A stretch of 64,000 nucleotides of DNA from a virus. Lineage: Duplodnaviria; Heunggongvirae; Uroviricota; Caudoviricetes; Crassvirales. The translations under genes were made by a program, and so were the position numbers. Below, piece after piece: positions 18,411-64,000 of the stretch (the first letter of the stretch is position 1; each line of letters starts with the position of its first letter). The notes under the pieces are model-generated. The model did no database searches. It had not been told where the DNA came from and was given only the letters and a program-made list of their open reading frames with translations. The stretch is from positions 24,104 to 88,103 of the IMG/VR virus record IMGVR_UViG_3300035495_000018; one strand, 5' to 3'.

Positions 18411-19062
18411 TTTTTTCTCCGTACTTACCATACAGTTTGTTATTAATTTCAGTGAATACACTATGAGGCATACCTTGATTGGTTCTAGCAAAGTATGCTG
18501 GATGCTCAATCTCAATAATATCATTGAACTTCTCATTAATATAAGGCTTTAGAGTCTGAGCCTGCTTACCAAACAGAACATATATAATGCCTGTTTCCAT
18601 GGTAGATAAGTTCTTTATCAACTTACTTACAAAGGGTCTCCATACATTAACATGAGAACCTACTTTATTGAGTTCACAAGTCAATGCTGAATTAATCATT
18701 AGGATACCTTGTCTAGCCCATGACTCTAAAGTATTATCAAAGGTGATAAGTCCATGAGGAACCTCATAGTTTATTACAGACTCTTTGACTACTTGTAAGG
18801 ACGGAGATAGTTTATCTTCTGTAGTCTCTTTACCATTACCAAACAGAATACCTGTTGCTATACCCTTCTGAGGATATGGGTCTTGACCTATAAATACAAC
18901 TTTGCAGTCTCTGTAGGTACACAGTCTAAAGGCTCTGAAAACATTAGGCAAAGCAGGACAAAGAGTATTAGGATTAACTGTTTTAAGCCAACCCATAATC
19001 CTCATTGTCTCTACTCTATCTAATACTTTCATCCAATCTCCAAAGTATTCTTCTATTGTCAT
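18388..19062 (-). CDS. ung: Uracil-DNA glycosylase (family-1-like, divergent)
   Basis: GQDPY water-activating motif (VVFIGQDPYPQKG) and HPA/HPS-like motif (IEHPAYF). Confidence 0.65.
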   Translation of the reverse strand: MTIEEYFGDWMKVLDRVETMRIMGWLKTVNPNTLCPALPNVFRAFRLCTYRDCKVVFIGQDPYPQKGIATGILFGNGKETTEDKLSPSLQVVKESVINYEVPHGLITFDNTLESWARQGILMINSALTCELNKVGSHVNVWRPFVSKLIKNLSTMETGIIYVLFGKQAQTLKPYINEKFNDIIEIEHPAYFARTNQGMPHSVFTEINNKLYGKYGEKIKWYEEE

Positions 19063-20036
19063 ACTTGTCTATCAGTGATACACTTCATTGCTATATCAAG
19101 CAATTTATCAGTTATAGTATCTTTATTAATACCAGGTATTTCAGGTATTTTAATACTATAAGAAGAATCTTCCTCTGTACCCATAATACCTTCATAGATT
19201 ACTTTAGTGACATAGCCACAGTCAAAACCATCATTAGCTTCAAATGGAATAATATGACCATCTTCACCAAACTTTGCTTTATCAATAGGAAGGTAAGCAC
19301 AGGTTCTTAGTTTGCCATAATTAGATATATATGGGACAGCAACTACATCAGTAGGATTAACTAAGACTACTAAACCTTGACTACCATAATAGTTTCTTTC
19401 AAGCCAATTAGCACCTGCTGCATGAAGGCCTCTACTACAAGAATGAGAAGAGTCAGTATCACATTTCTCTCTAGGCATAGTAACTACTTCACCAATCTTA
19501 ATTCTAGTAGAATGACTGTGCATATCAGTATAAATCTGATTACCTTCCTCATCCACTTCAAGAGGTTCTGCATTTCTATAAGCTACAAAGAAACCACATC
19601 TAGAAATCTTAAGCCCCCATTTATTAAGGAACCAGTAGAGATTTCTTCTACATTCTTCATCAGGATTAAGTGACATTAAAGTCCAGAAGTTTCTATAAGT
19701 ATCAATCTTTACTTCATCATTGTTAGACTCTGCTTCAAGTATAGCCTTAACAAGCTCAGTAGGTAATGATAACTGAGAGACCTCTTCCCAATAAACACTT
19801 TCTCCTTTAAGTGTAAGAAGATTAGAGCTTCCAACATTATCAAGGACACTTACAGCTTCCTTGTAATCTTGTACTTTCTTTTCATACTCAGGACACATGA
19901 GGACAAATATTTCCTCATCACTGTCAGCATTAACTATCCTTTCAAATAGTTCTTTTGACACATTGTCTCTTTCACAGTAAGTACCATCCTCAAATAGAGT
20001 AATGACCTTACCATCTACTTTAATTATTTTCTGCAT
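19059..20036 (-). CDS. hypothetical protein
   Basis: 325-aa ORF. Confidence 0.45.
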   Translation of the reverse strand: MQKIIKVDGKVITLFEDGTYCERDNVSKELFERIVNADSDEEIFVLMCPEYEKKVQDYKEAVSVLDNVGSSNLLTLKGESVYWEEVSQLSLPTELVKAILEAESNNDEVKIDTYRNFWTLMSLNPDEECRRNLYWFLNKWGLKISRCGFFVAYRNAEPLEVDEEGNQIYTDMHSHSTRIKIGEVVTMPREKCDTDSSHSCSRGLHAAGANWLERNYYGSQGLVVLVNPTDVVAVPYISNYGKLRTCAYLPIDKAKFGEDGHIIPFEANDGFDCGYVTKVIYEGIMGTEEDSSYSIKIPEIPGINKDTITDKLLDIAMKCITDRQV

Positions 20037-21886
20037 AACACTCTTAAAAGTTGATTATTATGTATTTTCTTATAAGTTTCTCCATTGATTCTGTATGCTT
20101 TTGTTTTCATTATAACTGCTGCTGTTAATAGAGAATTTTGTTTTTCATCACTCTCAACATCTACTATCTTGGCTGCTTTTCTATGTTTAATTATATAGTC
20201 TTTCAGCTTTGTACATAGATATTCTGTATAAGCATCATACGGAATTACTCCTCTATTAGCTATTCCTCTATAATCATAATTTGAACAAAATGTATCCCAG
20301 ATTTTAAGAAGTCTTTCAAACTCTTTTGCTTCTATTTTATCTATGTTCTTACATATTTGCTTAACAGTTACAGCAATACTATGATTGAGCTGATATAAAG
20401 CAGCATCATAAGGAAAATACTTTAATATTGTCTTTACAACAGATAGCATAGGGTCTTTATTTAATACCCAATCAAGGTCAACAAGAAAACTTGGATTAAG
20501 CTTCTTAATATCTGCTACAACATCTTTCCTTGCTGTTACAAGAATGTATCCTTTTAAAGCTATTACTGCCTTTATTTCAGGAGTTGGAACATCCATATTG
20601 CACAATACAATACCACTTTGAAGACCCTTTAAGTATTTAATACAGTCAAGCATAGTTCTAAAGACCTTCTTATCCCTCCAGTCAATCCTATTACTATGAA
20701 TATAAACAATAGTTTCCTTTACCTTTGAGGTATCTTTGCCTAATTTTCTTTCATCAGCCAAGCATTCCTTATACTCTTTAAAGTCCTCATCCTTATTTAA
20801 GTCAAGAGGAGTAGCATTACCTCTATAAGCTTCATAAATAGCTTCTACTATAAAATTAACAGTATCTATGTCAAAGTTATTTGGTAGATAACCTTTAGCT
20901 TCTCTTGTATAGATTCTAAAGAAACTAAGAGGTACATCTTTAGCTATAGCCATCTTATTAAAATTCTCTCTTATATAAAGTCTAGCTGTTGCAGTTAACT
21001 TAGCATCCTGATTTAAAAGCAATAGATTTGGAGTTCTAATTTGATTATAATTATATACTGAGCTAGGAAGTCTTAAATTGTAGATTTTATCTTGATAAAG
21101 AGTGCCTACATATTTAGGAAGTTGCATTCTAAATATAGCGCCAATAAAATTCACATATTCTTTTAAATCTCTTCCTTTGTACTTAGGATACTTACTTATA
21201 TTATTAAAGTCTACTTTATATCCATAATAACCCTCTGTAATCTTATTCTCTATTGGGTCATATATATGAGTATCTGACATTGTAGTCCAATATTCAAATA
21301 TATCATCATATTCTAATGTTAAAGCAGAGACTATAAGACCTTCAAGTTCTTGTTTAGCTGCTTTGATTTTATTAGAGATTTTCTCAATAGTTTCATTGTT
21401 ATAAATAACTTCTTCTCTATTAGGAGTTATACTTAAATCCCCTACATCAAACCTTAATACTATTCCAGTACTACTAATTGACCCAAGAAATTCTTTTAAA
21501 TCATCTTGGAACCTACTTTTATCAATAGGATAAAGAACATTTCCAAGAAGAATTTTATGTTCCATGGTAGCAGAAGCTGCTGCAAAGTTATTGAATTTCT
21601 TTATTTTAATGTCATTAATTTTAGTTTGACTATAACCACAGCCATCTATGTATATATTGGGGAAGAAAGTAATACATTTAAGGGCATCTTCATATCTCCT
21701 AAAACTATAGACATTCTTAATAGATACTTCTACACCATTCTTTTCAGTAGTAGGCTTCTCCATAAGAAGGTTAGTGGTGATAGTATTACCACTTTTAACC
21801 ATTACATAATAATAAGCTATTCCTTCATAATATGAAGTAATATATACACTATTACTACAAGCTAGGGCACTGAATCTTCCAATCAA
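20024..21886 (-). CDS. Large hypothetical protein; proposed 3' exon of a split GHKL-ATPase (rIIA-like?) gene; annotated start is TTG
   Basis: 620-aa ORF immediately downstream of a GHKL ATPase N-terminal ORF, separated by a ~250-nt element with group-I-like core. Confidence 0.45.
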   Translation of the reverse strand: MIGRFSALACSNSVYITSYYEGIAYYYVMVKSGNTITTNLLMEKPTTEKNGVEVSIKNVYSFRRYEDALKCITFFPNIYIDGCGYSQTKINDIKIKKFNNFAAASATMEHKILLGNVLYPIDKSRFQDDLKEFLGSISSTGIVLRFDVGDLSITPNREEVIYNNETIEKISNKIKAAKQELEGLIVSALTLEYDDIFEYWTTMSDTHIYDPIENKITEGYYGYKVDFNNISKYPKYKGRDLKEYVNFIGAIFRMQLPKYVGTLYQDKIYNLRLPSSVYNYNQIRTPNLLLLNQDAKLTATARLYIRENFNKMAIAKDVPLSFFRIYTREAKGYLPNNFDIDTVNFIVEAIYEAYRGNATPLDLNKDEDFKEYKECLADERKLGKDTSKVKETIVYIHSNRIDWRDKKVFRTMLDCIKYLKGLQSGIVLCNMDVPTPEIKAVIALKGYILVTARKDVVADIKKLNPSFLVDLDWVLNKDPMLSVVKTILKYFPYDAALYQLNHSIAVTVKQICKNIDKIEAKEFERLLKIWDTFCSNYDYRGIANRGVIPYDAYTEYLCTKLKDYIIKHRKAAKIVDVESDEKQNSLLTAAVIMKTKAYRINGETYKKIHNNQLLRVLCRK

Positions 21887-21895
21887 TTTGTTATC

Positions 21896-22143
21896 TTAAG
21901 AGCTTTTTATCTCTTAACTCTATAGGTTCATTTCCCTATAGTTCAGCATATCTTTTCATCCTAATAGGATGTTCCTGCCTCTTGGAGACATTATATTCTA
22001 CAAAGTAGTTTCAGTCTCTATGCGTTGCCCCTGTTATTATTTTTAAATAATAACTTCAGGTCTGATTCCCATCACAGGGTTCCAGGTTTTTTCAGGAATT
22101 TAGTCATCAACAATTACTTGCTGAGTCGGCATTGGATATAAGG
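21896..22143 (-). mobile_element. Putative ORF-less group I intron (boundaries approximate)
   Basis: Shares 24-nt block TGAAACTACTTTGTAGAATATAA (minus sense) with the helicase intron; AGAGACTG R-like and AAGATATG S-like elements; GGCT(tcggt)AGCC hairpin. Confidence 0.4.
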
Positions 22144-22490
22144 CTACCGAAGCCTCCTATATAGTCATTACTATCTCTTTTAGTACTACTACCTATATTA
22201 CAGAATATATTCTTAAATCTATCAGGAGATAGTCCTGTACCATAGTCTCTAATAGTGATAGTACTATCTTTAAATCTAATAATTACAGGTTCTTTAGTAT
22301 TGCCAGCTTCTACATGTGAATCCCATGCATTACTGACAATTTCTCGAATGAATGATTCTTCAGGATGTGAATATAAGTTTGAAGATAGTAGAGTAGTAAT
22401 AAACTCTATGTTCTTAGGGTCTATTGAAGTTTTGAATTCCTTTACATCACCTACTACTTCAATATCTCCTGTTTGTGTATTTATAATCAT
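22107..22490 (-). CDS. GHKL (HATPase_c) ATPase N-terminal domain; proposed 5' exon (last ~12 codons probably intron read-through)
   Basis: Bergerat-fold motifs: N box [11 protein letters not shown]1 RDYGTGLS, G2 YIGGFGS. Confidence 0.55.
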
Positions 22491-22496
22491 CTTGTT

Positions 22497-22540
22497 TAAA
22501 AAAAAATAAAGGGTAGGCAGGATTTACCTACCTACCCATT
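22497..22540 (-). terminator. Rho-independent terminator after the 22544..22798 gene
   Basis: GGGTAGG...CCTACCC 7-bp stem followed (minus sense) by ttattttttttt. Confidence 0.6.
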
Positions 22541-23788: not shown

Positions 23789-24721
23789 TTAGTTCCAAGG
23801 AGAAGAACTTTCAGATGTGCTGAAAGGAAGTTCATCAGTAGGAGCTGCCTCTGTGGTAGGAGTAAATGTAGTTGCTTCTACAGAATACTCATGTACAGGA
23901 GCTGCTGAATACTCAGTATTAAGAGTCCTACCATTAGCTGCTGCATTTTGAATCATCTCTTGAAGCTCTTTATCAAGAGTGCTATAGTTATTAGCTGAGT
24001 TTCGCAAGAATTTCCTTGTATATACAGCTTGATAAAGTCTTCCAGTTTCTGCATCAGTTCTTACACCAAGCATAATTTTAACCTTATTAGTAGGTTGGAA
24101 GCCAAGTGCATCTTTAATCTCAGAGAAGTCTCCTTTGAAGATTTTGTCAAGGCTATCAAACCTACATTCACATTCCTCAGGTTTAACTTTAGTATTGGGG
24201 ACCATTTTCTTAAGATTGGCATCCCATGTAGTTACACTAGGAATACAAAGATAAGCCTTTACAAACTCCATGAGTTCTTCTTCTCCTACATAAGCAGGCC
24301 TATAGTCCTTATCAATGTCAGCAGGACCATTAGAATAAACAGGAATAGCTTTAGCTGCAAGCTCTTCAGCTGTAGCCCATGCAGTCCTACCATACTTATC
24401 AATTACTTGAGTTTTACCTGATGTAGCACCTACTCTAGGCCTATTTTGCAAGAACAAAGCCATAGTTACAAGAGGCATTTCAAAGCCTACTTTCTCTGTG
24501 TCAGGTTGGAATACAATTTGAATTCTTGCATTACCATACTCATTACCATCACTATCTGTTACTTTACCAAGATAATTAGGAGCTTCATCCAATGTAGTAT
24601 TAAACAAAGACTCATGTTCTGCTTTATCAGGATTTACTGCTTTAATAAATACAGGAGCTACACCTACATATCTTTTAAACTCCTGAGCTTCTTTTGATTC
24701 TGAACCTTTAGCAATTGCCAT
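23789..24721 (-). CDS. Putative ssDNA-binding protein
   Basis: 310 aa, acidic C-terminal tail ending DELPF like the SSB DDDIPF tail; position in replication module. Confidence 0.35.
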   Translation of the reverse strand: MAIAKGSESKEAQEFKRYVGVAPVFIKAVNPDKAEHESLFNTTLDEAPNYLGKVTDSDGNEYGNARIQIVFQPDTEKVGFEMPLVTMALFLQNRPRVGATSGKTQVIDKYGRTAWATAEELAAKAIPVYSNGPADIDKDYRPAYVGEEELMEFVKAYLCIPSVTTWDANLKKMVPNTKVKPEECECRFDSLDKIFKGDFSEIKDALGFQPTNKVKIMLGVRTDAETGRLYQAVYTRKFLRNSANNYSTLDKELQEMIQNAAANGRTLNTEYSAAPVHEYSVEATTFTPTTEAAPTDELPFSTSESSSPWN

Positions 24722-25157: not shown

Positions 25158-25967
25158 TTATTTGTTGTTAATAAATATTTTAGAGGCATCAAATTTTACC
25201 TCATTATTTTCATTTGATTCTGCTACAAGTATCTTTTGACCTCTGAGATGAGGACATCTAGCTTCTTTAATGGTATTATCTCCACCCTCAAAAGATACAT
25301 AAGTTTTATTACCATCTCTATAGATAAGACCTATTGCATCAGCTTCTCCACATATAATATCTGCTGATTTACCAGCTAAGTCTACTGCCATTTCTGACAT
25401 CTCTTGACCATCTTTTCTGATTTGTTTATCCTTTACATGAGTTACTAAGATTAGTGTCTCACATAGAGGTTTATACATATCAATAAGATACCTTAGAGCC
25501 TTACGTAAATAGGTGTAACCCGCTCCATTAGGTAAAGTCCTTACATCAGCCTTAGGGTCAGTAAGTGGCTTCCCTGTCTTAGGGTCTTTAACTGGCATAC
25601 CTTTGGCATCTTTAAGTAGTCCATAACCCTGTCCCATAGCAGTATTTCTATACATCTCAGCTGCAAGAACAAGACTCATTTCTTCAAGTCTAGTGGCATT
25701 ATCAATAGTGATAAACCTATAAGGAGCTCTCTTTAGTTCTTTACCTTTTGCTAGAATAGCTGCCTTAATTTCTTCAAGGTCTTTTACACTCCTAGCCTGT
25801 ACTTTCATTACTGAGAGAGCTCTATAGCCATCTTCCAAATCAATGATAAGATTATCATCAATAGCTGCTACTAATGAGGACTTTCCCTGTTTGGGTCTGC
25901 CCATAAGAATTAATAGCTTTGGATTGTAGTTTGTAACTACACTTCTTTCTGTTGGTAATTCAATCAT
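25158..25967 (-). CDS. P-loop NTPase (RecA-like/Sak4-like or helicase loader)
   Basis: Walker A GRPKQGKSS, Walker B hhhhD (IIDLED). Confidence 0.5.
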   Translation of the reverse strand: MIELPTERSVVTNYNPKLLILMGRPKQGKSSLVAAIDDNLIIDLEDGYRALSVMKVQARSVKDLEEIKAAILAKGKELKRAPYRFITIDNATRLEEMSLVLAAEMYRNTAMGQGYGLLKDAKGMPVKDPKTGKPLTDPKADVRTLPNGAGYTYLRKALRYLIDMYKPLCETLILVTHVKDKQIRKDGQEMSEMAVDLAGKSADIICGEADAIGLIYRDGNKTYVSFEGGDNTIKEARCPHLRGQKILVAESNENNEVKFDASKIFINNK

Positions 25968-26364
25968 TTTTAAATATATTTGTTACTTTACTCCACATCA
26001 TCATAAGTGTGGAAATTTTCTTTTTCTTGTTATCCTCCATAAATTTATATACTTTGTACATCTCAGCATGGTCATCTGCTCTAGGTAGCTCTGAGAAAGA
26101 AGAAACTGCACCATCAAAGTAGAGAGGACATATGTTGCCATTAGCTCCATAATCTCTATCTTCAAGGATTTCCATAAATCTAATATGGTTCTTGAATTTA
26201 GTAATATCATATCCTTCATACTCTGTTAAACCATACTTAAAAGGACTATATAAACCAATTACCATATTAGCATCTCTAGTAGTAGTCTTAGCATCAGCTA
26301 AGCCATCTGAAGTTGGTTTAATCCTATTTAGTTTAAATGACTCATTGCCTTCTTTGTCTTGCAT
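25960..26364 (-). CDS. DnaB-like replicative helicase, 3' exon (C-terminal part)
   Basis: LNRIKPTSDGLADAKTTTRDANMVIGLY matches DnaB motif H4/Arg-finger region (QLNR..P.LSDLRESGxIEQDAD..FLYR). Confidence 0.65.
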   Translation of the reverse strand: MQDKEGNESFKLNRIKPTSDGLADAKTTTRDANMVIGLYSPFKYGLTEYEGYDITKFKNHIRFMEILEDRDYGANGNICPLYFDGAVSSFSELPRADDHAEMYKVYKFMEDNKKKKISTLMMMWSKVTNIFKND

Positions 26365-27470
26365 ATGTTAATATATAGGCTCTTTATCCTATATTTCTTC
26401 TTTTTTCAAAGAAGTGTCGGACTATATCTTCACTATAAAGTGTGGGATTCTCGTGTCTCTATTATATTCTACAAAGTAGTTTCAAGAGTTAGTCTCTGAA
26501 CCTTCAAATAGCTTTTACACTATAAGCTCGGCTGCTGATTGGCATATATCTCTACTTAGCTTTCCAGCAATTCTTCCCATTTATCCAGACCCAATTTATT
26601 ATTCAATTAATTTATATCTCATTGATTCACATATATAAGGCTTTATTATATTAGTAAATAGTTCTCTACTTTTTGCTAATATATAGATAGTAGGCTTATT
26701 TTTCATCATGTTTATAGATGAATGTATGCCAAATTTATCTAATAGAAGTTTCTGTAAAAATATTACATCTTCTATATTAAAACCTTCTGTATGTAAATAG
26801 TAAGAACAATTATTTTTAGAACCATCATCCATAAACCATATAGCTAAACTCAATGCTGTAAAATGCTCTTTTATATTTGTAGGTACTACTTTCTTATTAT
26901 TTGGATACCATAAATCCCTCCAATAATTAAAAGTAATACTTCTAGATATTCTTATATCACATCTACCATTACAAACACAAGTTCTATTTCCAATTACATG
27001 AGTAAAAGCTTCAGGATTCTCAGTATAATTAACTTTCAACCCTTCTTTCTCTAACAGAGATTTTAGATATAATGTATATTCCCTCTGTTTATAAGAATGT
27101 CCACAAGTAATTGTACTATTTAATATTTTAACTGCCTCACAATTTCTATTATATTTGGTTATAGAAGAATCTCCTAGAAGAGTACCTATTAATATAGATT
27201 TTGCTATATCTGTTAAAATAATTGGATGGTTCCTATCAGTATTATTTAATTTCTGTTGAGCTACTCTGTCTCTATAGATTCCTAACTTATTAAAATAATA
27301 CTGAATTGTTGATTTTGAACATCCTATCTTTTTAGCTATATCTTTATAAGACATTGTAGGATATTCTTTTAATATCTCCTTAATTTGTTCTTCTGTATTC
27401 ATAATTTTTTTCTATAGGTATTAATTATGATACAAAGATAATAAATAAAATTGAATTATGCAAACGTAAA
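26345..27470 (-). mobile_element. Group I intron carrying a LAGLIDADG homing endonuclease, inserted in the DnaB-like helicase gene (boundaries approximate)
   Basis: Conserved core elements on minus sense: R GTTCAGAGACTA (plus ~26470-26487) and S AAGATATAGTCC (plus ~26420-26431); splits helicase between motif H4 halves. Confidence 0.7.
26599..27402 (-). CDS. LAGLIDADG homing endonuclease with N-terminal HTH
   Basis: Two LAGLIDADG motifs: LIGTLLGDSS and LAIWFMDDGS. Confidence 0.8.
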   Translation of the reverse strand: MNTEEQIKEILKEYPTMSYKDIAKKIGCSKSTIQYYFNKLGIYRDRVAQQKLNNTDRNHPIILTDIAKSILIGTLLGDSSITKYNRNCEAVKILNSTITCGHSYKQREYTLYLKSLLEKEGLKVNYTENPEAFTHVIGNRTCVCNGRCDIRISRSITFNYWRDLWYPNNKKVVPTNIKEHFTALSLAIWFMDDGSKNNCSYYLHTEGFNIEDVIFLQKLLLDKFGIHSSINMMKNKPTIYILAKSRELFTNIIKPYICESMRYKLIE

Positions 27471-28261
27471 GCCTGGTGCTGAATCATTACTATAGTATAT
27501 TTTAGTTGGTCTCTAAGAGTAATAAAATACTTTGACATCTTTTCTATAGTTTCCCTTTTACTTAGACCACTTTCTTGAGATAAATTAGAGGCATTATCAA
27601 GTATCACTATTCTATACTCTTCTGAATCATTAGGAGTATAAGGATTAACAGTATCTACTATCTTTTTGTCTTCTAACTCTCCTGTAATTGGATGTGGTAC
27701 TTTAATAGTCTTAAAGTTAAGATGTCCATTCTCTAAGGCTACTTCTCTACATTTCTTGTTTATCCCAGTTGGATTTCTAATGTCATCAATATAAGTAACT
27801 ACTTCATTGAATTTTCTAATATACATTTGATACTTCTCAGTTTCTAATAGACTAAGTACTTCTTCAGATACAGGATGGTCTTTATCAGTACTTTCAATAT
27901 CTGCATTAGTGTATCTAAGATTATCAAGTCTATATAATAAGTGACAAAGAAACTCTATATATTTCTTTCTTGGGCTCTCTTCAAGGCAGAAATATAATAT
28001 CTTCAATCTAACCTCAGGATGTTTTATAATAAAATCTATAGCTTCATATACATATACAAAGTCACAGAATTTAGTTTTACCTACCTTTTGGTTAGCTGTA
28101 CATATTATATACCTTCCCATTTGAGTTCCTGGAAATAATGTACGGAACCTTGGAAATGGCCAGGGAATACAGTTATATAAGCCACTTATGGCTCTTTCTC
28201 TTTTATCTTTTAAATAAGATAGTACTTCTTCAAAATAACTCATACCATTGTAGACATCCAA
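27425..28261 (-). CDS. DnaB-like replicative helicase, 5' exon (Walker A/B); last ~15 codons probably intron read-through
   Basis: Walker A TANQKVGKTKF, Walker B IVILDNASNL, H3/H4-like LKYTIVMIQHQ. Confidence 0.65.
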   Translation of the reverse strand: MDVYNGMSYFEEVLSYLKDKRERAISGLYNCIPWPFPRFRTLFPGTQMGRYIICTANQKVGKTKFCDFVYVYEAIDFIIKHPEVRLKILYFCLEESPRKKYIEFLCHLLYRLDNLRYTNADIESTDKDHPVSEEVLSLLETEKYQMYIRKFNEVVTYIDDIRNPTGINKKCREVALENGHLNFKTIKVPHPITGELEDKKIVDTVNPYTPNDSEEYRIVILDNASNLSQESGLSKRETIEKMSKYFITLRDQLKYTIVMIQHQALRLHNSILFIIFVS

Positions 28262-30504: not shown

Positions 30505-30609
30505 TGTATTTCTTATTTAAGGGGTTGAACTAACTTGAGCCAGTTCCACTATGTTTAAGTAGCCCTAAGGCTACCAAACATAGTATTAGAGCTATTATCC
30601 AAACAGTAA

Positions 30610-30828
30610 TCATTTAGAAATATCCCTAAATAGTGTTGGAACCTGACCATAGACAGGTAACTTGCCATCCCACTTCTCAATCCACATTTTCTCTAGGATT
30701 TGAGGAGTAAGGGCTTGCTGTTTAAGCCTATTGGCTTCTGCTTCTGCTTGTGCTGCAACAATAAGTTTCTTTGCATTAGCTTCTGCAACAGCTACCTCAT
30801 TCTGAGCTTGCTGAGCTCTTTGTATCAT
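30610..30828 (-). CDS. SPFH/band-7 protein, 3' exon (C-terminal coiled-coil part)
   Basis: AQQAQNEVAVAEANAKKLIVAAQAEAEANR resembles HflK/C-type C-terminal region; in-line with the 198-aa SPFH N-terminal ORF. Confidence 0.45.
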   Translation of the reverse strand: MIQRAQQAQNEVAVAEANAKKLIVAAQAEAEANRLKQQALTPQILEKMWIEKWDGKLPVYGQVPTLFRDISK

Positions 30829-30834
30829 TTATCT

Positions 30835-31790
30835 TCACATAACCACGCAACTAGTTATGCAGTTCTCTTATGAACTTCTATACATTACTGCATAGATGAG
30901 ACTATATCTTCACCCTCAACATTACTTGGTAGGGGTTTCCCATTTCCACCTGCATTAGCTTCAGATGTACTCTCTTTCGAGATAGTCGTTGAACCTTTAC
31001 TAATACTAAAGTTATATATTCTCTCTACTTGCTTTAAGAAATCTTCCTTTTGTTGAGTATGTTTCATATAATTACATATAGGACAGCAAGGAACACAATT
31101 ATCCACTTGATAACCTATATTAGGATTTATCCTATCTATGCCATTATACCTTATTGTAGGCTGATGAGTGTCTCCTCTTTTAACGAGAAGCTCCTTACTT
31201 GCTTCTCTAGGCTCTGCTCCACAATAATGGCATGGTTGTGATATTATATGATTAAACTCTTCAAATGTTAAATTAAAACTATGCTTCCTTGAAGCAGCAT
31301 TAGCTTTACTCGACCTATAAAGAAAATTTCTCAATCCATATTGAGATTCGTTACTGAATTTAGTTTGAACTCTACTACCTAGTTTATGCAGGTAAGCTCC
31401 TCCATAGAGAAACTCCTTACCAGTGTTCACATTTCTGCATTTCCACTTGGTTACATAACATTTTTCAGTAGGTATTCTTACCTCTTCAATAACTTCATAC
31501 ACTCCATAGACCTGTCCTACATGGACAGGATATTTAAGTGCATTCTTTTTAATACTTCTGTAATTAGTACTTGGCTGCTGATTTTCCATAAATAATTCAT
31601 TTTGATAATACAAAGATAAGCAAAATCTTTGAATTATGCAAATGAATAAATATGGATGTTCCAGCAATTAAGGAAATTTATTATCTTGCCTTTTCAAGCA
31701 AGGAGACCGTACATTTCAGCCTCATTCTTAGCATTGACAGCCTTTACAATAGTCTCTGGATATTTAAGACCTGAAGTAAGCTGTTCAAGT
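30835..31790 (-). mobile_element. Group I intron carrying an HNH homing endonuclease, splitting the SPFH gene (boundaries approximate)
   Basis: S-like element AAGATATAGTCT (plus 30898-30909) and R-like CCAGAGACTAT (plus ~31747-31757) bracket the HNH ORF, consistent with an ORF in the P8 loop. Confidence 0.5.
30885..31667 (-). CDS. HNH homing endonuclease
   Basis: CHYCG...NGIDRINPNIGYQVDNCVPCCPICN (HNH with Zn-binding Cys pairs). Confidence 0.75.
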   Translation of the reverse strand: MLEHPYLFICIIQRFCLSLYYQNELFMENQQPSTNYRSIKKNALKYPVHVGQVYGVYEVIEEVRIPTEKCYVTKWKCRNVNTGKEFLYGGAYLHKLGSRVQTKFSNESQYGLRNFLYRSSKANAASRKHSFNLTFEEFNHIISQPCHYCGAEPREASKELLVKRGDTHQPTIRYNGIDRINPNIGYQVDNCVPCCPICNYMKHTQQKEDFLKQVERIYNFSISKGSTTISKESTSEANAGGNGKPLPSNVEGEDIVSSMQ

Positions 31791-32290
31791 TGGAAGTTTT
31801 CCCTCAGCAATGCAGCAGACAAGTACCTCTCAATGGCATTCTCAATAGAATCCCTATTACTTACAATGTAGTCTGTAGTGAAATTGTTGAGCTGAATTCT
31901 GAAAGCATCCTTTACATAGTTATAGAGTGTTCCATTAATGACCTCACTAAGCTCTTTCCTGTATTTCTTGAATACAATAGGAGACTTACCATCTACAATC
32001 TTCAATGAGATAGTTGGGTCAACAGTAAACTCTGAACCATCCTTTGCATTGATAGTAAAGGGTTCATAGTCTACAGTCTGTACAAATGTAGGATACTCAT
32101 ACACAGATTGTGTAAAAGGATTGTACCATACTGCACCTGTACACATAGAAATGTCACCTACTCCCTTGTCATCACCATAAAGGTTTACAAGGATACCTTC
32201 ATGTCCCGCATCTATTCTTTCATAGCCACAAGAGGACATCATAAACACAGCCATAAAGGCCATGAGAAAACCTAGAATCTTTGTCTTCAT
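31694..32290 (-). CDS. SPFH/band-7 (prohibitin-like) lipoprotein, 5' exon
   Basis: Signal peptide plus lipobox MSSCG; ERIDAGHEGILV SPFH N-terminal motif. Confidence 0.5.
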   Translation of the reverse strand: MKTKILGFLMAFMAVFMMSSCGYERIDAGHEGILVNLYGDDKGVGDISMCTGAVWYNPFTQSVYEYPTFVQTVDYEPFTINAKDGSEFTVDPTISLKIVDGKSPIVFKKYRKELSEVINGTLYNYVKDAFRIQLNNFTTDYIVSNRDSIENAIERYLSAALLRENFQLEQLTSGLKYPETIVKAVNAKNEAEMYGLLA

Positions 32291-32475
32291 TTCTTGTTTG
32301 TTAATTTAATTTGGGTGAAACACTTAGTTTTAACTGACAGACAACCAAAGCCTACCAGTAACACAATACCACAGAGATTAGCTATGGTACTTGGGTAAGT
32401 AACCAGTCCACAACCTGTTGACAGAATGAACATGAATACAACTACCCACAGAATAAATAGTACTACTTTCTGCAT
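32287..32475 (-). CDS. Small two-TM membrane protein (holin-like?)
   Basis: 62 aa, two hydrophobic helices, adjacent to SPFH and glucosaminidase. Confidence 0.35.
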   Translation of the reverse strand: MQKVVLFILWVVVFMFILSTGCGLVTYPSTIANLCGIVLLVGFGCLSVKTKCFTQIKLTNKK

Positions 32476-33479: not shown

Positions 33480-33494
33480 ATAGATAGTCACTAA

Positions 33495-33568
33495 ATTCAC
33501 ATGATGGACTCGAACCATCTACTCTAAGCACCAAAAAACTTATGCTCTACCTAATGAGCTAATGTTAT
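33495..33568 (-). tRNA. Atypical tRNA: canonical D-arm (TA GCTC ATTAGGTA GAGC) and T-arm, but 8-10-nt anticodon loop (TTTTTTGGTG) and 5/7 acceptor pairs
   Basis: Manual fold. Confidence 0.4.
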
Positions 33569-33604
33569 TAGTATTGTAAGTGACTGTATATAACAAATGG
33601 CATG

Positions 33605-33724
33605 CGGGGATTATTGGATTTGAACCAATAACTCTGGATTGTATCCCAGAATAAATTGTTAAGTTGCTTTTGTAAGTGACCTTAGCCACTCAAACAATCT
33701 GCCTTTCCATAAGGCTGAATCCCC
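33605..33724 (-). ncRNA. Overlong (120 nt) tRNA-like RNA: perfect acceptor GGGGATT/AATCCCC, D-arm GCCT-TATGGAA-AGGC, T-arm ATTGG TTCAAAT CCAAT, ~47-nt insertion containing hairpin TCTGG(gatacaa)CCAGA and ACTTACAAA motif
   Basis: Manual fold. Confidence 0.45.
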
Positions 33725-61891: not shown

Positions 61892-63121
61892 ATGAAGACT
61901 TATAGTAACTTGTTTGACAAAATATGCACGATTGAAAACTTCCAAGCTGCATATCAGAATGCTATAAAAGGCAAGATGCACTATAGGGAAGTAATAGAGA
62001 TAGAAAAGAACAGAGATGCCTACTTGGAGGCTCTACTGGAAGAAGTAAAGTCCAAGAAATATAAGGTCTCAGAGTATACAGTGTTCAACCTCTTCACAGG
62101 TCATAAGATGAGAGAAATCTTTAAGCTACCTATGAGAGATAGAATAGTACAACATGCTATTATGATATACTGTGAGCCAATATTCAGAGAGACATTCATT
62201 CTAGATACCTATGCTTCTATTAAGACTAGAGGTATTCACTTAGGGTTACAAAGAGTGAAGAAAGCTCTAAAGAAGTACCACTACAAGTACTGCTTGAAAC
62301 TGGATATACACAAGTGCTATCCTTCACTAGATAAGGAAATATTAAAGAAGAAACTAGCAAGGAAGTTTACAGACCCTGACTTACTAGACCTGCTATTCAA
62401 GATAGTAGATAGTTGTGAGAAGGGTGTTCCTATTGGAAACTATACATCTCAATATTTCAACAACTTCTACTTCAGTGATTTTGACCACTGGATAAAAGAG
62501 GTTAAGGGTATTAAAGCCTACTTCAGATATTGTGATGATATGGTTATACTGAGCAATAGTAAAGAAGAGCTTCATGCTATGCTAGAAGAAATAATGGGAA
62601 AGATGAAAGAACTCAATGTTTCACTCAAAGAGAACTATCAGCTGTTTCCTATTGATTCTAGAGGTATAAGCTTCCTTGGTTATATAATTACAGAGGACTG
62701 CATCAAGGTTAGAAAGAACACTAAGAAGAACTTTGTACACAAGGTATCAAAGATGAACTTTTCCAACCCCTCAGCTAAAGACATTAATGTACTTGGTTCA
62801 TATTGGGGTATCTTAGTTCATGCTGATTGTAGACACCTATGGAAATCATACATGGGTTGTAGTGCATTCAAATCCTTCATGAAGAGATACAAGTGTTCAG
62901 CTAGAGATGTTCTTAATAAACCTATCAGGGTGCTAAGGGCTTACAGAAAGTATTCATCTGGTAAATGGTATACTGTTATGGAAGCTCTTGTTGGAAATCT
63001 GTATGCCACAATTAAAACTACAAGTAAGTATTTAGCAGTAGCTCTAAATGCTGTACTTCCATTTGATACATATATTATAGCTACTCAAAGAGGTTATAGA
63101 TTTAATACAATTGTAATATGA
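61892..63121 (+). CDS. DGR reverse transcriptase
   Basis: RT motifs: LKLDIHKCYPSLD (domain 3), YxDD box FRYCDDMVIL; 409 aa; immediately downstream of the TR. Confidence 0.85.
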   Translation: MKTYSNLFDKICTIENFQAAYQNAIKGKMHYREVIEIEKNRDAYLEALLEEVKSKKYKVSEYTVFNLFTGHKMREIFKLPMRDRIVQHAIMIYCEPIFRETFILDTYASIKTRGIHLGLQRVKKALKKYHYKYCLKLDIHKCYPSLDKEILKKKLARKFTDPDLLDLLFKIVDSCEKGVPIGNYTSQYFNNFYFSDFDHWIKEVKGIKAYFRYCDDMVILSNSKEELHAMLEEIMGKMKELNVSLKENYQLFPIDSRGISFLGYIITEDCIKVRKNTKKNFVHKVSKMNFSNPSAKDINVLGSYWGILVHADCRHLWKSYMGCSAFKSFMKRYKCSARDVLNKPIRVLRAYRKYSSGKWYTVMEALVGNLYATIKTTSKYLAVALNAVLPFDTYIIATQRGYRFNTIVI

Positions 63122-63774: not shown

Positions 63775-64000
63775 TGAAAAATTTACTCATAGTAATAATT
63801 CTCTTTCTATGCGTGTCCTGTGCTTCTACAAAGTATGTAGAGGTGCCTATTGAAACTATTAAGACGGAGTATGTCAATAAGGTTGACTACAAAACTGATA
63901 GTATCTTCATCAGGGATAGCATAGACAGATATATCAAGGGAGATACAGTCTTCATAGAGAAGTACAAAACTACATACAAGTACAAAGATAGAGTTCTTAC
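63775..64000 (+). CDS. Lipoprotein (5' part; continues past window end)
   Basis: MKNLLIVIILFLCVSCAS signal peptide with lipobox. Confidence 0.5.

Follow-up and report, generated by a model that had tools for sequence, protein, structure and literature searches.

A probable ORF-less group I intron in the ATP-binding loop of an rIIA-like gene of a crAss-like phage

The stretch of DNA analyzed here (the window; 64,000 nucleotides (nt), positions 24,104 to 88,103 of IMG/VR record IMGVR_UViG_3300035495_000018) comes from a crAss-like phage, and in it an rIIA-like gene is divided into two open reading frames (ORFs) by a short element that we read as a group I intron. With a probability of roughly 0.92, the gene is interrupted by a 262-nt intron that has no ORF of its own and would be spliced out between the codons for Gly115 and Ile116. 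A preliminary description of the window had suggested as much, namely a third group I intron, without an ORF, in a gene for a GHKL ATPase, and the covariation of the helices, the splice signals and a strong match to a family-specific covariance model now bear this out. The anatomy of the element, its covariation, its family membership and the colinearity of its exons are matters of direct observation. Unless marked otherwise, the intron, the exons and the other genes discussed lie on the minus strand. The gene and its parts are as follows.

22107..22490, minus strand: ORF of 127 amino acids (aa), the GHKL head.
20024..21886, minus strand: ORF of 620 aa, reading (L)IGRFSALACSN...
22146..22490, minus strand: exon 1 of the rIIA-like gene, 115 codons with the N-box, the G1 box and the first half of the G2 box (..IGGFG).
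20024..21883, minus strand: exon 2 of the rIIA-like gene, 619 codons plus stop, beginning IGRFSALACS...
21884..22145, minus strand: predicted ORF-less group I intron, 262 nt, from the family model, covariation and exon joining.
22126..22136, minus strand: internal guide sequence, 5′-UCCAAU/GCCGA-3′, intron positions 10-20.
21884, minus strand: terminal G (omega-G) after the conserved tail GAUAACAAAUU.

Taken alone, the first ORF gives Pfam matches to HATPase_c (1.5e-5) and HATPase_c_3 (5.5e-5), both slightly under the cut-off. As first described, this ATPase head runs 12 codons into the element, and the 620-aa ORF follows it on the same strand; the element is also non-coding, as stated, with an actual size of 262 nt (22145..21884) rather than about 250 nt. 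Similarity to the RIIA proteins of IAS virus and T4 reaches GGFG and then ends in the exon-1 reading frame, which continues for 12 further codons and a stop. At this place the window reads ..NDYIGGFG, followed by 12 divergent residues and the stop, where IAS virus reads ..NDFIGGFGIGKYSSLACSN... The insertion point lies inside the ATP-binding G2 box (GGFG/IG), exon 1 ends ..GGC UUC GGU, its final U directly preceding the 5′ splice site, and the apparent TTG start of the 620-aa ORF at 21886 is intron sequence. When 22490..22146 and 21883..20024 are joined, with a predicted ligated junction of ...GGAGGCUUCGGU/AUUGGAAGAUUC..., they give an uninterrupted frame for a 734-aa protein, close in size to T4 RIIA (725 aa) and to the roughly 750 aa that had been anticipated.

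Comparison with homologues shows that the two ORFs encode parts of one protein. IAS virus has the equivalent as one uninterrupted 732-aa ORF, to which the joined protein is 43% identical from first to last residue and gap-free at the junction, and in 7 additional IMG/VR relatives the region is likewise uninterrupted. PHROG 612 ('RIIA lysis inhibitor') is matched end to end (residues 1-712 on profile positions 1-709 of 725, E 1.4e-59), and the score for Pfam HATPase_c_3 rises from 23.7 bits for exon 1 alone, under the cut-off of 25, to 38.1 bits for the joined protein, with a match that crosses the junction. The next ORF after the gene (19059..20036) matches rIIB PHROG families. An N-terminal GHKL/Bergerat ATPase with N, G1 and G2 boxes, a length near 725 aa and an adjoining rIIB gene, the hallmarks of RIIA, are all found here; the PHROG match (which also answers the proposed profile check of the 620-aa ORF as the rIIA remainder), the similarity to T4 RIIA and the rIIB-like neighbor agree with the label 'rIIA-like' given at the outset. 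On this protein-level evidence the two ORFs are one rIIA-like gene, a term that does not imply a function in lysis inhibition or exclusion.

The guide sequence would hold both exon ends at once. Its GCCGA pairs with the end of exon 1, UCGGU, in a P1 of 5 base pairs (bp) that places the U22146.G wobble exactly at the cleavage site, and its UCCAAU pairs with the start of exon 2, AUUGGA, in a 6-bp P10 contiguous with P1. Together they form 11 contiguous pairs; when the first 40 intron bases were shuffled 20000 times, a single shuffle did equally well, and among all T/...G/ splice-site combinations within ±15 nt this one pairs best, the runner-up having 8. The intron ends ..GAUAACAAAUUG, its 3′ splice site being set by the reading frame, the homologue alignment and P10. 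The signals of a group I intron (a U before the 5′ splice site in a U.G wobble of P1, an omega-G, a P10 and a frame restored by removal) are present together. In family members lying in other genes, the guide varies together with the exons (read by eye); in the capsid-gene intron of bajarodcaudo virus 1, for example, exon AAGGGU faces guide GCCCUU, and exon 2 UUGAC faces guide GUCAG. The GGCT-tcggt-AGCC hairpin noted earlier does exist (22141-22153) and spans the 5′ splice site; it was considered as P1 and rejected, since it is UCGGU/GCCGA that brings the U.G wobble to the splice site and adjoins P10 without a gap.

Beyond the guide, the following helices make up the proposed fold.

22107..22124, minus strand: P2 hairpin, UCAGCAA-GUAA-UUGUUGA with a GNRA tetraloop; 7 of 7 pairs changed on both sides, 98% of cells paired, also found by RNAalifold.
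22093..22098, minus strand: P3 5′ strand, UUCCUG, followed by an A-rich J3/4; pairs with 21972-21977, 5 of 6 pairs covary.
22029..22085, minus strand: P4-P5-P6 domain, with P4 CUGG/UCAG, P5 CCC/GGG, P6 CCU/GGG and P6a GUUAUUAUU/AAUAAUAAC; covariation and RNAalifold.
22019..22023, minus strand: P7 5′ strand, GCAUA, where the classical R element would lie; its partner is UAUGC at 21946-21950.
21985..22018, minus strand: P7.1/P7.1a arm between P7 and P3′, outer GAGAC/GUCUC and inner CUAC-UUU-GUAG; covaries.
21972..21977, minus strand: P3 3′ strand, CAGGAA; covariation and RNAalifold.
21957..21971, minus strand: P8 hairpin, CAUCC-UAUUA-GGAUG, followed by J8/7 AAAAGA; 5 of 5 pairs covary.
21946..21950, minus strand: P7 3′ strand, UAUGC, in the place of the classical S element.
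21896..21941, minus strand: P9 (CUAUAGG/CCUAUAG) and P9.1 (UUAAGAG/CUCUUAA, conserved loop AUAAAAAG); also found by RNAalifold.

These helices were drawn by hand from the window sequence and then scored on a MAFFT alignment of 18 ORF-less members, with controls in which the 3′ partners were slid by 1-3 columns and with 500 shuffles. Across the 18 sequences, 94.2% of cells are paired (33-45% after sliding), both partners vary in 50 of 65 pairs (18-34 after sliding) and covariation scores 0.70 (0.08-0.15 after sliding); none of the 500 shuffles reached the observed value on any measure. In P9 and P9.1 every cell is paired (100%), and both partners vary in 12 of the 14 pairs; P8 has 82% of cells paired, its loop region being poorly aligned. 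Because the structure came from the window itself, RNAalifold was also run on a 15-sequence alignment that left out the window and its same-site relatives, where it recovered P2, P3, P4, P5, P6, P6a, P7.1, P9 and P9.1, with compensatory changes in 41 of 52 pairs; the P3 helix recovered in this way is the same long-range pairing, with strands 121 nt apart. Minimum-free-energy folding yields local hairpins (z = -4.07). The exon-1 frame crosses the guide and P2 and ends at a UGA (22109-22107) in the P2 3′ strand.

The core thus comprises P3 to P8, including the long-range P3/P7 pseudoknot of group I introns. P7 reads GCAUA/UAUGC where the canonical sequence is GACUA/UAGUC; the strands are complementary, and two pairs are changed on both sides. 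In the Rfam alignment of one relative (L126), GGUUCAACGCAUA falls on the R-element consensus GGUUCAaAGACUA, and in three contigs that pass the Rfam group I model RF00028, GGUUCAACGCAUA is aligned on the R element and GAUAUAUGCUG on the S element. In the Michel-Westhof classification, a P7.1/P7.1a or P7.1/P7.2 between P7 and P3′ marks the phage-type subgroup IA. The covarying P7.1/P7.1a arm supplies this extra pairing, which places the intron in subgroup IA.

Relatives of the 3′ half found by blastn lie in the gaps of split genes (tape measure, terminase, major capsid), next to endonuclease ORFs. A search of IMG/VR with the core signature AACGCATAG..CCAMGAG..TATGCTG returned at least 120 matching stretches (loci L017-L136). 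A covariance model (R1), built from the 15-sequence alignment that leaves out the rIIA intron of the window and its same-site relatives, matches that intron with 235.6 bits (E 4e-58) over all 247 model positions (21884-22128). Over the 64 kb, R1 found one other credible site, the 3′ core of an intron in a helicase gene (82.7 bits); a partial match at 63776-63814 (E 0.32), intergenic and without intron context, was rejected as chance. R1 also matches two of the orf142 introns of phage Twort (43.9 and 37.5 bits), group I introns according to their GenBank record, and an rIIA intron of phage cr116_1 (25.4 bits), to which RF00028 gives 80.8 bits. The rIIA intron of the window belongs to a large family of mobile phage group I introns. 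In an unverified human-gut phage scaffold (MT835481, 538-2679, minus strand), family members lie close together, apparently in one gene: one (2431-2679) is ORF-less and scores 234.4 bits with R1, and a second seems to be split by an HNH-type ORF in P8 (5′ part 1489-1657, 3′ part 538-641).

Catalysis and splicing in vivo are what we infer from these features, in the following sequence. The primary transcript would fold into P3-P8 with the P3/P7 pseudoknot, together with P2, P7.1/P7.1a, P9 and P9.1, and the guide UCCAAU-GCCGA would bring the exons together, the end of exon 1 in P1 (U.G at the cleavage site) and the beginning of exon 2 in P10. Exogenous guanosine would attack after U22146, the freed 3′-OH of exon 1 would attack after the terminal G21884, and the ligated exons would form the mRNA for the 734-aa RIIA-like protein. 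Unspliced RNA would yield only the 127-aa truncated ATPase head.

Other explanations have to be weighed against this one. The element could be a decayed relic that no longer splices, with rIIA reduced to a pseudogene or to two polypeptides, the 127-aa head and a 620-aa tail started from the TTG at 21886. The absence in the window of the endonuclease ORF that all three same-site relatives carry, the failure of RF00028 to recognize the element and the presence of that TTG just upstream of exon 2 would suit such decay. Yet all helices are intact, differences from the relatives are compensatory rather than disruptive, the R1 score is as high as that of any searched relative (212.8-234.4 bits), P1, P10, the U.G pair and the terminal G are without defect, and both exons are open and conserved over their full length in comparison with IAS virus (43% identity). 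Intact splice signals and open, conserved exons would be unexpected after loss of function, and we regard a relic as improbable. We give even less credence to two independent genes with a structured intergenic RNA between them (a regulatory element, a terminator-promoter or a small RNA), in which a 24-nt block shared with the helicase intron would be a regulatory motif. Public annotation of relatives does give two or more separate coding sequences, and the element folds stably (z = -4.07); homologues nevertheless encode one continuous protein through the exact junction, so that separate genes would leave the G2 box halved, and the block is confined to two intron cores, where it forms a covarying hairpin. 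In a scan for sigma-70 promoters and terminators, promoter-like sites stood at shuffle expectation and the element was terminator-free, which is weak evidence given that Bacteroidetes and phage RNA polymerase promoters fall outside the scan; the sole terminator found (22511-22537) lies upstream of the rIIA start. Neither a promoter or unrelated function of the 620-aa ORF, which has no promoter excess and falls within the RIIA profile match, nor a copy of the block at a non-intron site was found, these being the two observations that the preliminary description had set against itself.

It is hardly credible that the two ORFs are joined at translation, by stop-codon reassignment, a frameshift or ribosomal bypassing. 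Stop-codon reassignment is known in crAss-like phages (IAS virus and the phiCrAss001 relatives belong to the Beta group), and the window has at least 21 transfer RNA (tRNA) genes (21 called by ARAGORN; 23 Rfam tRNA matches). However, the exon-1 frame across the 262 nt holds TGA, TAG and TAA (stops counted by eye), the 21 ARAGORN tRNAs include no suppressor anticodon, homologues lack residues matching the 262 nt, and we know of no precedent for a 262-nt ribosomal bypass. With all three stop types in frame and no suppressor tRNA, recoding and read-through were rejected.

Some points weigh against an active intron. RF00028, the sole Rfam group I model found, has no match to the rIIA intron, either over the whole window at the gathering score or over 600 nt at E ≤ 10, so that the covariance-model scan proposed in the preliminary description is silent with the Rfam model and strongly positive with the leave-out family model. 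We do not accept this silence as evidence of absence, given that relatives pass RF00028 and the family model matches strongly; the compensatory change in P7 accounts for it most simply, because RF00028 treats the R/S bases as conserved single-stranded sequence, and these are changed here. P7 itself is invariant in the alignment by design of the search pattern, and its support consists of complementarity and the two compensatory differences only. The pair counts score a structure derived from the window itself, which the leave-out RNAalifold run offsets only partly. Translating ribosomes could compete with the formation of P1 and P2 over 22107-22145, and the ORF-less copy could be inactive through a tertiary-contact mutation invisible to sequence tests.

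The same intron occurs at the same site in three contigs, L014 (IMGVR_UViG_3300045988_073211), L104 (IMGVR_UViG_3300045988_045610) and L254 (Ga0265298_10077141). These were found with a 38-nt degenerate pattern that returned true same-site copies only; a 14-nt guide-sequence pattern returned 118 stretches in IMG/VR, almost certainly chance matches, and was discarded. All three are inserted at the same point as the copy in the window (ggc ttc ggt / att gga), have its guide CCAAUGCCGA unchanged, form the same helices and score 212.8-231 bits with R1. They differ from it in carrying a LAGLIDADG-type ORF, presumably for a homing endonuclease, between the 5′ splice site and the guide, where the window has only the 10 nt AGCCUUAUAU. 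The ORF of L014 is complete (274 aa, Pfam LAGLIDADG_3) and occupies the loop of a lengthened P1, with an additional helix closing that loop; in L104 and L254 the ORF is truncated where the contig ends. Compensatory substitutions separate these copies from the window in P2, P3, P5, P6, P7.1, P9 and P9.1; relative to L014, for instance, P5 CCC/GGG becomes AGC/GCU and P6 CC/GG becomes GG/CC, with both sides changed. Such differences argue that the ORF-less ribozyme is still under structural constraint. The 262 nt contain no ORF apart from the 12-codon read-through, and the copy in the window has most likely lost its ORF or descends from an ORF-less form, the direction being a matter of inference; it would therefore probably be immobile on its own, with its ribozyme intact.

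The helicase intron, which lies in a DnaB-like helicase gene (exons about 28261..27470 and 26361..25960, intron about 26361-27470), has the same overall architecture as the rIIA intron. Unlike the latter, it has canonical R/S elements and its own LAGLIDADG ORF (26599-27402, 267 aa, LAGLIDADG_2). Its core (26361-26597) scores 29.7 bits with RF00028, under gathering, which is why it is absent from the whole-window Rfam scan. The 24-nt block reported in the preliminary description is exact, at 21990-22013 and, in this intron, at 26461-26484; these are its only two copies in the window, and 0 of 100 shuffles gave a match. It forms the inner P7.1/P7.1a arm (UGAA-ACUAC-UUU-GUAG-AAUAUAAU), of which the internal-loop bases UGAA and AAUAUAA are conserved in the family and the hairpin between them is variable; the closing stem is GAGAC/GUCUC in the rIIA intron and CUCU/AGAG in the helicase intron. 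Outside the block, the two introns are roughly 45% identical (an estimate from invariant alignment columns). Since the same hairpin occurs in none of 128 other family members sampled from IMG/VR, the exact identity exceeds family conservation. Of the core-like segments also said to be shared, AAGATAT is homologous in both introns (J8/7-P7′), and AGAGACT is not: in the helicase intron it corresponds to the classical R element (P7 5′ strand) and in the rIIA intron to the last P7 base plus the P7.1 5′ strand, the copies being offset by about 7 nt in the model alignment.

By its position and pairing, the block is structural RNA, not a promoter or terminator, and a recent gene-conversion patch between co-resident introns would be the simplest explanation of its identity in both. 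We think it unlikely that the rIIA intron depends on, or is coordinated with, the helicase intron through the shared arm as a possible site for a trans-acting factor, which could be, for example, the LAGLIDADG protein of the helicase intron acting as a maturase. If it were so, production of RIIA would hinge on splicing and be coupled to the expression of a protein encoded by another intron. A shared endonuclease lineage for the helicase-intron LAGLIDADG protein and that of the rIIA relatives was considered and found unsupported, with no similarity between them (E 0.45).

The rIIA-like gene lies in the replication block of the phage, with a DnaB-like helicase, an SSB-like gene and a primase upstream and the rIIB-like gene and a uracil-DNA glycosylase downstream. 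Among GenBank phages, IAS virus and cr116_1 (Steigviridae, Asinivirinae) come nearest, with about 70% nt identity over the alignable 40%. Further along, an SPFH/Band_7 gene (30600-32300, minus strand) appears to be split into an N-terminal part (31694-32290, Pfam Band_7) and possibly a C-terminal remainder (ORF 30610-30828, 72 aa), with a Cys-rich 260-aa ORF between them (30885-31667) that has HNH-like motifs and no Pfam match. RF00028 gives 44.9 bits at 30878-31110 (E 3.4e-9, under gathering), overlapping the 3′ end of this 260-aa ORF, and the interruption is probably another group I intron, judging from this match. With it and the helicase intron, the count that made the rIIA intron the third agrees with what was found. 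Elsewhere, an ORF on the plus strand (61892-63121, 409 aa) encodes a reverse transcriptase (Pfam RVT_1 58.1 bits, PIGNYTSQ motif, YCDD box), which we take to resemble those of diversity-generating retroelements. At 33494-33569 (minus strand) ARAGORN reports a tRNA, without assigning it an identity, whose anticodon has four bases (tttg), and a 120-nt Rfam tRNA match at 33605-33724 (minus strand, 35.8 bits), not called by ARAGORN, may be a tRNA with an insertion or intron.

Group I introns in crAss-like phages are already known, and the rIIA intron joins them; a literature search combining rIIA, intron and crAssphage found no paper. One survey found such introns via endonuclease domains, mainly in the Delta and Zeta groups (Yutin et al., 2021; PMC7886860), and detection of this kind is blind to ORF-less copies such as the present one. 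What makes this intron noteworthy is that it has no ORF, escapes both Rfam and endonuclease detection, has ORF-carrying siblings at the same site and shares an arm with a co-resident intron. A sizeable family of phage group I introns seems, from the contigs scanned, to be poorly covered by RF00028: 3 of 17 core-signature contigs pass at gathering (62.7, 55.9 and 51.0 bits) and 14 are missed. Given these misses and the at least 120 signature stretches, the density of introns in gut phages is probably underestimated, and a family-specific covariance model would recover introns that RF00028 misses. The finding also has value for annotation, since public records split the rIIA-like gene: the IAS-virus record (NC_049978, 1557-3755) annotates only the 3′ 411 codons of the uninterrupted 732-aa ORF, and in the cr116_1 record both exons and the intron ORF each stand as a gene of their own. 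Its main value is practical, and current understanding is unchanged by it.

The protein, the ribozyme and the insertion site each have a known counterpart. T4 RIIA has the same GHKL head (IGGFG(L/I)G) and a similar length (725 versus 734 aa), and a rIIB-like gene adjoins the gene in the window. It aligns over residues 1-294, through the junction (T4 IGGFGLG), with 28% identity over about 300 aa (BLASTP E 5e-21), and the C-terminal 430 aa match at the profile level only (PHROG 612). Unlike the gene in the window, the T4 rIIA coding sequence is annotated as a single uninterrupted feature. The Twort orf142 introns (AF132670) share with the rIIA intron a P9 hairpin, a P9.1-like hairpin, a GUAACA..UUG tail ending in G and the extra P7-P3′ pairing typical of subgroup IA. 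They differ in host gene, in lineage and in a canonical P7 (GACUA/UAGUC, against GCAUA/UAUGC here), and they have separate P7.1 and P7.2 hairpins in place of the single P7.1/P7.1a arm. Landthaler and Shub reportedly showed self-splicing of the Twort introns in 1999, and the structure of the Twort ribozyme is PDB 1Y0Q. The counterpart for the insertion site is the rIIA intron of cr116_1 (NC_055882), likewise a group I intron that interrupts the G2-box motif of this gene; it has a LAGLIDADG-type ORF annotated as 'intron-encoded endonuclease', and its splicing restores GGFGIGKY. It lies 5 nt upstream (ggg t/tt ggc), is 1026 nt long and has canonical R/S elements (GACUA/UAGUC), and is a different intron from that of the window. 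With two different introns 5 nt apart, the codons of the rIIA ATP-binding loop have been invaded at least twice, and these two introns, together with the variants with and without an ORF at one site, represent classic stages in the life cycle of homing introns, here within an abundant lineage of human-gut phages.

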